Source: an uncultured bacterium (GTDB lineage Bacteria; Fidelibacterota; Marinisomatia; Marinisomatales; UBA1611). From it: a stretch of 64,000 nt of DNA. The notes under the pieces are model-generated. The model searched no databases. It worked only from the letters and a program-made list of their open reading frames with translations, and was not told the DNA's origin. The stretch lies in the NCBI GenBank assembly GCA_943788175.1, contig CALSPG010000006.1, positions 256,316 to 320,315 of the forward strand, written 5' to 3'. Positions 39,615 through 41,847 of this stretch are shown piece by piece. The translations under genes and the position numbers were made by a program. Within the stretch, counting starts at the first letter, position 1; each line of letters begins with the position of its first letter.

Positions 39615-39688
39615 GGGATCGTAGTTCAGTTGGTTAGAACGCCGGCCTGTCAAGCCGGAGGTCGAGGGTTCGAGTCCCTTCGGTCCCG
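39615..39688 (+). tRNA. tRNA-Asp (anticodon GTC)
   Basis: A manual cloverleaf fits. Acceptor GGGATCG/CGGTCCC, D-stem GTTC/GAAC, anticodon stem CCGGC/GCCGG with loop CT-GTC-AA, T-arm GAGGG-TTCGAGT-CCCTT, discriminator G. No CCA is encoded. Confidence 0.95.
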
Positions 39689-39689
39689 C
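39661..39689 (+). repeat. Direct repeat copy 1 (attL-like): 3' 29 nt of tRNA-Asp
   Basis: gtcgagggttcgagtcccttcggtcccgc is identical to 41788-41816. Confidence 0.9.
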
Positions 39690-39695
39690 ACACAG

Positions 39696-39733
39696 AAAGC
39701 CTTGGTTTCACGAAAAGAAACTGAGGCTTTTTT
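39696..39733 (+). terminator. Rho-independent terminator after tRNA-Asp (element-borne)
   Basis: aaagccttggtttc-acgaaaa-gaaactgaggcttt followed by ttt. Confidence 0.7.
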
Positions 39734-39858
39734 ACTTTATATAGAAACAGAGATGTAGTTGGAAAAGCTATTAAGGATGGAGAATGTGTATAAACATTAG
39801 ATGTGCCTCATGCATAAACTTAAAATCACAAAAATGATTGCTACTATTAGGCATTACC

Positions 39859-41714
39859 ATGTCCCGCTCTAACTCGCCCCATGTTCCGCCTGCCCCAGCA
39901 GGTTCTAATGCCAAAAGCCCACGACGATATTTGGGTGTGTTTCGGTATAGCGGTCGGGCACTTGGGCTAGTATGGACTACGCATCGGGGACTAGCGCTGG
40001 CGATGATGGCGCTGGTATTGGCTGCGGGGTTGATGCCCGCTGTAGTTGCATGGCTGGGCAAAATGATTGTTGACACAGTAGTGCTGGCGGTAGAAACACA
40101 AGCGCCCGCAGACAGGCATTTGGCGATAATGTATGTCGTTGCTGAGGCAGGTGCAATCGGCTTACTAGCCGGATTCCAACGCGGTATCGCGGTGTGCGAG
40201 TCGCTATTGCGCGCCCTGCTGGGCCAACGAGTCAATGTAATGATCCTGGAAAAGGCTGGGACATTGTCGTTGGAGCAATTCGAAGATTCGGAGATATACG
40301 ACCGTATGACACAGGCGCGTCGCGAGGCATCTAGCCGCCCGCTGGCGTTGGTACGCAAAACTTTTGGGCTGATTCAAAACTCTATTTCTATAATTGCCTA
40401 CGGAGGATTGCTGATACAGTTTTCGCCTATTGCTGTGGTGGTGCTGTTTGTAGCGGCCCTGCCCGTCTTTTTTGCCGAAGCTCGTTTCTCGGGCGAGGCC
40501 TTTCGCCTGTTTACATGGCGTACCCCTGAGCGACGCGAGCAGCTGTACCTAGAGACCGTACTGGCCCGCGAAGATTACGCCAAAGAGGTCAAACTTTTTG
40601 GCCTGTCTTCAATGCTGCTCGGACGCTATAAGGCAATATTTAAAAAGTTATTCCGCGACGACCGTAACCTGACGTCTGCGCAAAGGTTTCTGGGGTTACG
40701 TACTGGGCCTATTGGGCACGTTGGCCTTTTATGGTGCCTACGGATGGATAGTTGTAGAGACAGTTGCAGGGGTATTAACCTTGGGTGGCATGACGATGTA
40801 TATCCTAGTATTCAAACAAGGTCAGGCCGCCATAACCGCTAGCCTATCGGCAATTGGCGGCATGTACGAAGACAACCTATACCTTTCGAACCTTTATGAA
40901 TTTCTTGAGGTTCCCGTTACAAAGGATACAGGCGGTGCCAGCTCGGGACCGATACCCTAAAGACGGCATTCGATTTGAGAACGTTGGATTCACTTACACA
41001 GGCGCCGATAGCCCTACCCTGCAAGGAATAAACCTGCACCTTCAACCTGGGCAAAAACTGGCGCTGGTCGGACACAATGGTTCGGGCAAAACAACACTGA
41101 TCAAATTAATGTCTCGGCTATACGAGCCTACCGAAGGCCTAATACTGTTCGAGGGCCGCGATCTGCAGGATTGGGATATCGCTGCGTTGCAAGACAAAAT
41201 TGGCGTTATATTCCAAGATTTTGTCCAGTACCAAATGAAAGTAGGTGAAAACATCGGTACCGGAGATGTCCAGAATTTCGATGCCCAAGACCGTTGGCAA
41301 GACGCTGCAACCAAAGGACTGGCTGCGGACTTTATCGAACGTATGCCTAACAGCTACCTAACTCAATTGGGTAGATGGTTCGCTGGTGGTCAAGAGTTGT
41401 CTGGCGGAGAATGGCAAAAAATAGCACTATCGCGCGCATTTATGCGCCGGTCGGCCAATGTCATAGTGCTGGATGAACCCACCAGTGCAATGGACGCGGA
41501 AGCTGAAGCCAAAATATTTGACCACTTCCGCCAAATCACCGAGGATCAAATGGCGATTCTAATCTCACATAGATTCTCGACTGTTCGTATGGCTGATCAA
41601 ATTGTAGTCTTAGAACACGGCCAAATACAAGAGCGCGGTACGCACGAAGAATTATTAGATGCCGAAGGCGAGTATGCACGGTTGTTCAAACTACAAGCCG
41701 CAGGGTATCAATAG
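39859..41714 (+). pseudogene. Fused TMD-NBD ABC exporter (MsbA/multidrug-type half transporter) carrying two +1 frameshifts
   Basis: Three ORF pieces lie in frames 1, 2 and 3: 39838..40842, 40712..40960 and 40854..41714. The sense is continuous across the shifts. At about 40677 it reads ...RDDRNLT | LRKGFWGYVLGLLGTLAFYGAYGWIV. At about 40957 it reads ...GPIP | KDGIRFENVGFTY. NBD motifs: Walker A GHNGSGKTT, signature LSGGEWQKIALSRA, Walker B VIVLDEPTSAMD and H-loop ILISHR. Confidence 0.8.
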
Positions 41715-41787
41715 GCTTGCACAATAAATAGTGTATGATTTCAGGCATGTGAGCAACAATCCTACCCTACAATATTTACTGAAACAT

Positions 41788-41816
41788 GTCGAGGGTTCGA
41801 GTCCCTTCGGTCCCGC
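41788..41816 (+). repeat. Direct repeat copy 2 (attR-like): orphan 3' fragment of tRNA-Asp
   Basis: gtcgagggttcgagtcccttcggtcccgc with no 5' half of a tRNA upstream. It is followed by the native terminator. Confidence 0.9.
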
Positions 41817-41821
41817 TTTCA

Positions 41822-41847
41822 AAAAACCCACCAACAGTTGGGTTTTT
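41822..41847. terminator. Bidirectional rho-independent terminator (displaced tRNA 3' end and convergent 1397-aa gene)
   Basis: aaaaaccca-ccaacagt-tgggttttt, flanked by an A-run and a T-run. It abuts the stop codon (41846-41848) of the minus-strand gene. Confidence 0.7.

Follow-up and report, generated by a model that had tools for sequence, protein, structure and literature searches.

Organization of the tRNA-Asp locus

The stretch of DNA analysed here, referred to as the window, comprises 64,000 nucleotides (nt) of contig CALSPG010000006.1 (assembly GCA_943788175.1) from a chromosome of the SAR406/Marinimicrobia group (Neomarinimicrobiota). Its subject is a 2.1-kb islet at a tRNA-Asp(GTC) gene that contains one gene for an ATP-binding cassette (ABC) exporter. 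SAR406 bacteria are abundant uncultured ocean bacteria with streamlined genomes. The window is low-GC (guanine plus cytosine, about 31%) chromosomal DNA with the housekeeping genes for SerRS, TrpRS, S1, Cmk, ScpA/B, UvrD/PcrA and YceG, a gene cluster for polysaccharides and genes for secreted proteins that carry type IX secretion tails; in the islet region the GC content steps sharply upward. The assignment of the window to Candidatus Marinimicrobia rests on the names carried by near-identical proteins. All coordinates are window positions, and L001 to L109 denote the loci and contigs used for comparison. The features of the locus, in which attL and attR stand for the left and right attachment sites (att) of an integrative element, are the following:

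39340-39608, + strand: left host flank, gene for a small membrane protein of the DUF3098 family (Pfam DUF3098), split by a 1-nt insertion at 39492
39615-39689, + strand: intact tRNA-Asp(GTC) gene, the target on the attL side (ARAGORN, sole tRNA gene of the window; Rfam RF00005 at 39615-39688, 74 bits)
39661-39689, + strand: first copy of the direct repeat, comprising the variable loop, the T-arm, the acceptor 3' strand, the discriminator base and one more base
39690-39785, + strand: leader A, a terminator hairpin (39694-39732) plus 52 nt, found in the species of the window only, other species carrying an unrelated 280-bp leader B
39786-41787, + strand: 2.0-kb cassette, consisting of a 73-nt upstream region, the ABC coding sequence (CDS) and a 73-nt tail, 95-98% identical in L003-L010, L021-L023 and L107-L109
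39859-41714, + strand: gene for an ABCB/MsbA-like half-transporter of 617 amino acids (aa) when intact (Pfam ABC_tran, 1e-31, residues 388-543)
41788-41816, + strand: second copy of the direct repeat (exact 29-nt match), a displaced orphan 3' fragment of tRNA-Asp resembling a relic of attR
41822-41847, both strands: weak hairpin W (folding free energy, dG, -9.7 and -9.8 on the two strands, z -2.3), flanked by an A-run and, on its opposite side, a T-run
41846-46039, - strand: right host flank, encoding a secreted protein of 1397 aa that carries a sorting domain for type IX secretion (Pfam Laminin_G_3, Por_Secre_tail and FlgD_ig), conserved in conspecifics

The tRNA gene that the first-pass annotation had placed at 39615-39688 was recovered by both ARAGORN and Rfam. 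The exact recurrence of its 3' end that had been read from the sequence was found as well: the 29-mer (GTCGAGGGTTCGAGTCCCTTCGGTCCCGC) occurs exactly twice in the window, with no occurrence expected from 100 shuffles. The att geometry described for the locus, an intact tRNA gene and a displaced 3' fragment with foreign DNA between them, is correct. The tRNA gene itself is 100% identical across the species of the window, L108, L022 and L003.

Each repeat copy had also been credited with a terminator of its own. Downstream of the first copy, hairpin A (39694-39732) forms a strong intrinsic terminator with a T-run behind it (dG -19.7 kcal/mol, z -6); as a candidate dispersed repeat it had a single occurrence in the window. 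Hairpin W is weaker and immediately adjoins the stop codon of the convergent gene for the 1397-aa protein, and a role as a bidirectional terminator common to the tRNA side and the 1397-aa gene is plausible. The earlier identification of hairpin W as the original terminator of the tRNA gene is not safe. In the conspecific contig L017 (reverse complement of about 10532-10640, corresponding to window 41788-42060) the fragment carries two mismatches; behind it come the initial 44 nt of leader A, which make up hairpin A, and next a divergent allele of the C-terminal part (type IX sorting domain) of the 1397-aa gene. Fragment and hairpin A form a 73-nt direct repeat in this contig. Because of this arrangement, whether hairpin A or hairpin W is the native terminator of the tRNA gene is uncertain.

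The islet encodes a single ABC exporter under purifying selection

The sole open reading frame (ORF) of real size between the repeats encodes an ABC exporter with fused transmembrane and nucleotide-binding domains. The N-terminal six-helix transmembrane domain is joined to a C-terminal nucleotide-binding domain with the ABC motifs, as in exporters of the type IV fold, and the protein aligns near full length to the MsbA model and to MsbA and ABCB1 chains from the PDB. No NCBIfam equivalog cut-off was reached, the best match being to the models for MsbA, the lipid A flippase (TIGR02203, 263 bits with a cut-off of 602; NF008381, 227 with a cut-off of 867). The description of the islet as carrying one high-GC gene stands as regards the single exporter, whereas the GC content is 51% and not about 55%; the host value is about 31%, and GC at third codon positions is 52% compared with 22-25% in the flanking host genes. 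The absence of a recombinase from the islet was borne out: among the window ORFs of 110 aa or more, none matched an integrase, resolvase or transposase family (including Phage_integrase). Likewise, no recombinase was found beside any cassette copy in the comparison loci.

In the window the ABC gene is spread over three frames by 1-nt insertions at 40676 and 40953 that are seen in no relative, and in every relative it is intact at 617 aa. The window and the 99%-identical contig L009 differ by six indels over the 20.5 kb compared, and each of them is an extra single base in the window. Such insertions also break the DUF3098 gene (intact at 88 aa in L009 and L011-L020) and the start of the SulP gene (46248), and the gene for a GT4 glycosyltransferase (8414-9524) is likewise split. 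Since all indels are single insertions and core genes are hit too, the two frameshifts in the ABC gene are probably a sequencing artefact, and the extra bases relative to L009 suggest that the window assembly is error-prone. The substitutions unique to the window allele comprise 12 synonymous and 2 non-synonymous changes; between alleles, 24-33 synonymous codon changes are accompanied by 7-10 non-synonymous ones. The ABC gene is under purifying selection. A pseudogene in a decaying island was rejected on account of the intact gene in all relatives, the 12 to 2 ratio of substitutions and the artefact-like indels.

The islet is fixed in its species

Conspecific loci were collected by exact look-up of the YceG protein of the window, which listed ten contigs from different samples and assemblers with lengths of up to 301 kb (L009/L011 and L012-L020). 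In all ten the gene order is UvrD, YceG, DUF3098, tRNA-Asp, ABC, the 1397-aa gene and SulP, and both copies of the 29-mer are present with 0-2 mismatches. Leader A is 99-100% identical in the conspecific assemblies and absent from the other comparison loci. The sister species L108, whose flanks are 91-94% identical, has the same junction between tail and fragment (1 mismatch) and the same right flank. Mismatches in the orphan fragment occur in L015, L017 and L108. According to the first-pass annotation, an insertion would be contradicted if the relatives carried the gene here and lacked the orphan fragment; the fragment is present in all ten conspecific assemblies and in L108.

The sharp GC step, together with short contigs of about 2 kb that carry only the ABC gene and are common, could be explained by an assembly chimera that fused the gene of a high-GC organism to a low-GC contig through a k-mer conserved in tRNA genes. 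However, both junctions recur in ten other independent assemblies, and the cassette also lies in low-GC DNA of a single-cell genome. Because these ten assemblies carry an identical structure, the islet is real; a chimera is refuted and retains virtually no probability.

An empty site, which the first-pass annotation had proposed to look for, was not found. An exact scan of JGI (Joint Genome Institute) metagenome contigs, run without a positive control, gave no match to the empty site and none to a circle junction of tail, 29-mer and leader. An attB would read GCCGGAG followed by the 29-mer and by TYTCAAAAAACC or ACACAGAAAGCC, and an attP-like circle would read GAAACAT followed by the 29-mer and by ACACAG or ACTGAG. 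None of the ten listed contigs with an identical YceG protein has an unoccupied locus. The islet is fixed in the species and not polymorphic, and there is no indication of present mobility at the window site.

The cassette is foreign and has spread across species

Only three GTDB species representatives encode an ABC protein with at least 97% identity; two bear the label Neomarinimicrobiota (a single-cell genome is among them), and the third is a metagenome-assembled genome. The next relatives in GTDB are 60-67% identical and belong to cyanobacteria, myxobacteria and Desulfuromonadales. The best homologue outside (L105, 75% aa identity) lies on a contig of 56-59% GC, and its flanks share no similarity with the cassette. 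The islet DNA is foreign and was acquired horizontally. A search for the cassette on phages and plasmids gave no match in IMG/VR (by protein), INPHARED or PLSDB.

Between species with only 68-92% identity in their core genes, the 2.0-kb cassette is conserved at 95-98%. Compared with the window, L003 shows 97.6% identity in the cassette and 68-74% nucleotide identity in UvrD and YceG (YceG 53% at the amino acid level), whereas L022 and L108 show 96-97% in the cassette and 91-94% in the flanks. Conspecific strains are 97.4-97.5% identical in the cassette and 99.6-99.9% in UvrD and YceG; the tract in which the window diverges from them runs from about 39888 to 41818, and the tRNA gene and leader are 99-100% identical. 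Because cassette identity does not track the divergence of the hosts, cassette alleles have been exchanged between strains and species. To our knowledge, gene exchange in SAR406 is poorly documented. One foreign ABC exporter has swept recently through several SAR406 species and provides a concrete marker of recent gene flow in the phylum.

The tRNA-Asp gene is a target of phage integrases

Four viral contigs of IMG/VR (L101-L104; GC 40-42%) carry a 46-47-nt fragment of tRNA-Asp that extends from the anticodon stem to the 3' end and is identical to the host sequence; none of them has the full tRNA. In the two longer contigs, L103 and L104, which both have tail-fibre genes, a tyrosine integrase gene (PF00589, E 3e-11) is found about 65 nt away from the fragment. 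In L104 the fragment is located at 13427-13473 and the integrase gene at 13521-14929, with an S24 repressor-type gene beside it. The fragment of L103 and L104 is a temperate-phage attP that links these viruses to the host lineage of the window. The tRNA-Asp gene is a proven integration target, a hot spot used by temperate phages.

A tandem arrangement was observed at the same tRNA gene in L003, a more distant SAR406 genome. There, tRNA-Asp is followed by a 6.7-kb insert, a conserved arm (at least 113 bp) with a 44-nt tRNA fragment, 278 bp of leader B, the ABC cassette, a gene for a 183-aa protein, a DEAD helicase gene and, at the contig end, the arm again. This array reads as the classic pattern of tandem accretion. 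Neither the L003 arm ('P-arm') nor hairpin A of the window had a match in IMG/VR. Integrases and arrays at tRNA-Asp are accompanied by blocks of 44-47 nt; the repeat of the window, with 29 nt, falls short of these and may represent a deletion end-point instead of an att identity block.

GC is raised to 38-44% in a region near the end of the window (57318-62211, - strand) that probably extends as far as the last window position and codes for a giant repetitive protein containing the repeats 'AELNxxDGVTS' and 'TANTAKVGYTDDLVAANSAVAAN'. A 1075-aa piece of it matches virion-structural and tail-spike families of PHROG (E 4e-41 to 8e-27), and its repeats (69-78% nucleotide identity) are common to a tail-fibre-like gene of L103, the phage whose attP matches the tRNA-Asp of the window. 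The ORF is fragmented between 60545 and 61636. The region may be a prophage remnant or encode a phage-derived surface protein; exact look-up of the phage-like neighbour gene at 62214-62891 gave no record.

The islet as a probable relic of an insertion at tRNA-Asp

With confidence somewhat above even, we favour the reading that 39690-41816 is a decayed and domesticated relic of an integrase-mediated insertion at tRNA-Asp and not an active element. From the structure of the locus we infer an integrase as the maker of the window insertion, and a deletion step after it. An integrative element with the ABC exporter as cargo would have entered the tRNA gene by site-specific recombination of a tyrosine integrase, by which the tRNA gene would have been regenerated and its 3' end displaced. 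Deletion would then have stripped all but the cargo, and the displaced fragment was probably trimmed from about 44-46 nt to 29 nt and fused to the cassette tail. Starting from an array like that of L003, one deletion between '...AAACATG|CACCGG' and '...CCGGAG|GTCGAGG', at 1 nt of microhomology, would be enough to give precisely the junction of L108 and the window; lost with it would be the remaining cargo, the arm and 15-17 nt from the start of the displaced fragment. Such a deletion would account for the short 29-nt repeat, for the absence of arm and integrase, and for the end of cassette homology at one base in two kinds of copies, those with the tRNA fragment after the tail (fragment-type) and those with 'GCACC' (the 'GCACC'-type). 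The islet would subsequently have been fixed in the species, and the orphan fragment would drift neutrally. The ABC gene would encode a working MsbA/ABCB-like half-transporter, its expression being assumed to start from the conserved 73-nt upstream region, and transcription of the tRNA would end at the strong hairpin at 39694-39732. Exchange of cassette alleles among strains and species would continue by recombination.

Three origins had been offered in the first-pass annotation, a decayed island, a cis-mobilisable element (CIME) and an unusually minimal cassette type. The decayed island fits best, with the correction that the ABC gene itself is not decaying and is intact in relatives. On the relic reading, integrase-less remnants would persist at the tRNA-Asp of SAR406 as functional genes, and the att geometry without an integrase would be a scar of a known kind in an under-studied phylum, and not a new type of element.

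In tRNA islands as defined for Islander, displaced tRNA fragments mark the island ends (PMC4383910). The islet agrees with these islands in its intact tRNA gene with an exact copy of the 3' end, in the foreign composition of the DNA between the two and in a tRNA gene used by phage integrases. It differs in having no integrase, in its size of 2.1 kb, in its one cargo gene, in a repeat of only 29 nt and in being fixed; moreover, no empty attB was found in relatives. Since the defining integrase is absent, the islet is at most a degenerate member of this class.

The genomic islands of Prochlorococcus built by tycheposons consist of serial integrations parted by partial tRNAs, with degenerate remnants, in marine genomes (10.1101/2020.12.28.424599). 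The streamlined low-GC marine genome, the position next to a tRNA gene and the transport cargo are similar here, and L003 shows tandem insertions with partial tRNAs and integrase-less remnants. The host phylum, however, is a different one, and the hallmark recombinase and replication module were found neither in the window nor among the genes of the L003 array.

Cassette contexts and alternative origins

The cassette occupies at least seven contexts. Its left end (39786, GTNTATAAACATTAG) agrees to about 1 base in three unrelated ones, namely leader A, leader B and the SpoIIE-gene context of L109, and the contigs L006 and L107 start precisely at this position. Its right end (41787/8, TTTACTGAAACATG) is common to two right contexts, the fragment-type and 'GCACC'-type copies. 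Leader B is present in L108, L003, L004 and L022, in L108 directly after the intact tRNA gene, and the unit of tRNA-Asp 3' end, leader and ABC gene recurs in four species. Other copies have other limits. In L023 the cassette extends over 39822-41721, and in L007 it begins at 39832 and replaces parts of a DUF1800/DUF1501 gene pair; the flanks of L007, checked as a possible part of the original foreign fragment, are only slightly raised in GC. The L001 copy starts at 39874, inside the CDS, and the copies of L002 and L107 end at the stop codon, with a complete but different tRNA-Asp gene 4 nt further on. In L003 and L004 no fragment follows the tail. The ragged ends of L023, L007, L001, L002 and L107 are such as illegitimate recombination would give. 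Because the cassette occurs elsewhere without a tRNA fragment and with ragged ends, recombination at att sites is not the sole route of its spread.

In L022 a gluconate operon (gnd-gntK-gntP, encoding a 6-phosphogluconate dehydrogenase-like protein, a gluconokinase and a GntP permease) lies at 7072-9915 inside leader B, between tRNA-Asp and the ABC cassette. The flanking genes of L022 are about 92% identical, and the operon is another cargo module at the tRNA-Asp hot spot. A repeat family of about 45 nt ('CCAAATCTACACATCATCCCACAAACAAAAAACC'), mostly with a terminator hairpin next to it, trails most genes of the L003-type island. Copies were located in L003 at 3407-3438, 8118-8149, 8526-8557, 12563-12594 (- strand) and 14649-14680, and also in L004, L008, L010 and L023; one copy after the ABC cassette is apparently split by inversion at 'TACCCA'. 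This family is absent from the window.

The shared ends raise the question of a discrete non-autonomous cassette with termini of its own (GTNTATAAACATTAG ... TTTACTGAAACATG), moved in trans by some recombinase or transposase, for which the tRNA repeat would be incidental and a circle or tandem junction 'CTGAAACATG-GTNTATAAAC' would be expected. The left end common to the leader A, leader B and SpoIIE contexts, at which L006 and L107 also begin, and the right end common to two contexts argue for it. On the other hand, terminal inverted or direct repeats were not detected at the cassette ends (z about 0), no target-site duplication was found beyond 'GT' in the flanks, the ends have no structured motif, the tail (41715-41790) is no more stably folded than shuffled versions of it (z +0.5 and -1.2), and four other copies end at different positions. 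We consider a cassette of this kind rather improbable. Two known types of unit were rejected: an integron gene cassette, as the tail has no attC structure, no GTTRRRY/RYYYAAC cores were seen by eye and there is no integrase, and a unit resembling an insertion sequence or a miniature inverted-repeat transposable element, as the terminal repeat tests gave z about 0 and the flanks share at most 'GT'.

The ragged copies direct attention to homology-facilitated illegitimate recombination, a process of naturally transformable bacteria that normally yields a deletion or a simple insertion. DNA from another SAR406 species, comprising tRNA-Asp, leader and cassette, would have recombined within the tRNA gene, and its far end would have been joined illegitimately in the tRNA gene of the recipient, duplicating 29 nt without any integrase. 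The tRNA gene, being 100% identical between species with flanking genes of 68-92% identity, would be the only good anchor; the right junction has a microhomology of just 1 nt (G), other copies clearly derive from illegitimate joins (replacement of the gene pair in L007, ragged ends in L023 and L001, a join within the CDS in L001), and no recombinase was found in the window or beside the copies. One conserved anchor, one junction with 1-nt microhomology and no recombinase are what the islet shares with this process. It differs in its clean duplication of the tRNA end and in an anchor of only 75 nt, which is short for the reported events. A join that falls within the anchor and leaves a clean repeat of the tRNA end would be an improbable coincidence, and tRNA-Asp demonstrably hosts integrase-type arrays. 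This origin therefore appears unlikely.

A further origin consistent with the repeats is a minimal element mobilised in trans, similar to a CIME or a satellite: an integrase-less circle of 2127 bp with an attP of tail, 29-mer and leader, inserted into the T-arm of tRNA-Asp, and excised from it, by an integrase whose gene lies elsewhere. The unit is flanked by repeats that are exact in the window and in most conspecific assemblies, and no recombination genes lie inside. T-loop-type tyrosine integrases use the T-stem and loop sequence of tRNA genes as core, and the 29-mer, which starts 3 nt before the T-stem, holds the symmetric T-stem and loop. The two right-flank haplotypes, with hairpin W in most strains and hairpin A in L017, have the same junction of tail and fragment, as two integrations of one attP would produce; leaders A and B fill one slot, and the cassette lies downstream of tRNA-Asp in four species. 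However, neither the circle junction nor the empty site was found in the JGI metagenome contigs, all ten conspecific loci are occupied, the sole integrases found at tRNA-Asp use a 46-47-nt block with unrelated arms, the fragment gathers mismatches (L015, L017 and L108) like a non-functional relic, and the L003 and L004 copies have no fragment after the tail. We regard this origin as unlikely, though conceivable.

The CIMEs of streptococcal families of integrative and conjugative elements have retained their att sites and lost the genes for integration and transfer (PMC6323972). The islet resembles them in its flanking att-like repeats and in the absence of integration and transfer genes. In contrast, an autonomous cognate element whose att arms match was not identified, the phage att arms being unrelated and the scan for the circle junction giving no match; no evidence of excision or accretion was seen at the window locus, the fragment decays neutrally in some strains, and the integrase-associated blocks at tRNA-Asp measure 44-47 nt.

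A bolder proposal can also be made. The 2.0-kb cassette (GTNTATAAACATTAG ... TTTACTGAAACATG) might be a discrete mobile unit without a recombinase, delivered repeatedly in different SAR406 species by an enzyme acting in trans, for example an integrase of a phage or of the host, and with a preference for sites downstream of tRNA-Asp. We put this forward only tentatively, as an outside chance; if true, no CIME or tycheposon so far described would be as small as this 'cargo-only' shuttle.

Several observations weigh against the favoured reading of the islet as a relic. The attP arms of the phages have no similarity to the leader or tail of the islet or to the L003 arms (all z below 2, and a match noted by eye was unsupported), and no integrase-bearing element carrying the ABC cassette was found in IMG/VR, PLSDB or INPHARED. 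Next to hairpin W, no example of the postulated intermediate of the deletion was seen. The coincident left end in three contexts is not predicted by a history of pure decay, and the 73-nt repeat of L017 calls for an additional recombination event. The coincident left end, the ragged ends and L017 keep alive the element mobilised in trans, illegitimate recombination anchored in the tRNA gene and the discrete cassette. The recurrent exact left end is moreover a lead toward the delivery vehicle.

Other features of the window

Further observations were made in other parts of the window. A cobalamin riboswitch (Rfam, 72.6 bits) is located at 29649-29807, upstream of a gene for a TonB-dependent receptor (29879-31939). 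The stretch 49391-55179 has a GC content of 21-26% and an AT skew of about -0.3, and its ORFs of 773, 298 and 797 aa have no Pfam or PHROG match; the 773- and 298-aa ORFs overlap, like one frameshifted gene. A strain-variable patch at 32000-33231 shows 53 differences per kb relative to L009 (1-8 per kb nearby); it lies in the gene for a DUF5074 protein with a type IX sorting domain, and L015 and L017 have a different gene structure there. Between the TrpRS and NlpC/P60 genes, at 28293-28832, is a stand-alone gene for an HNH endonuclease.

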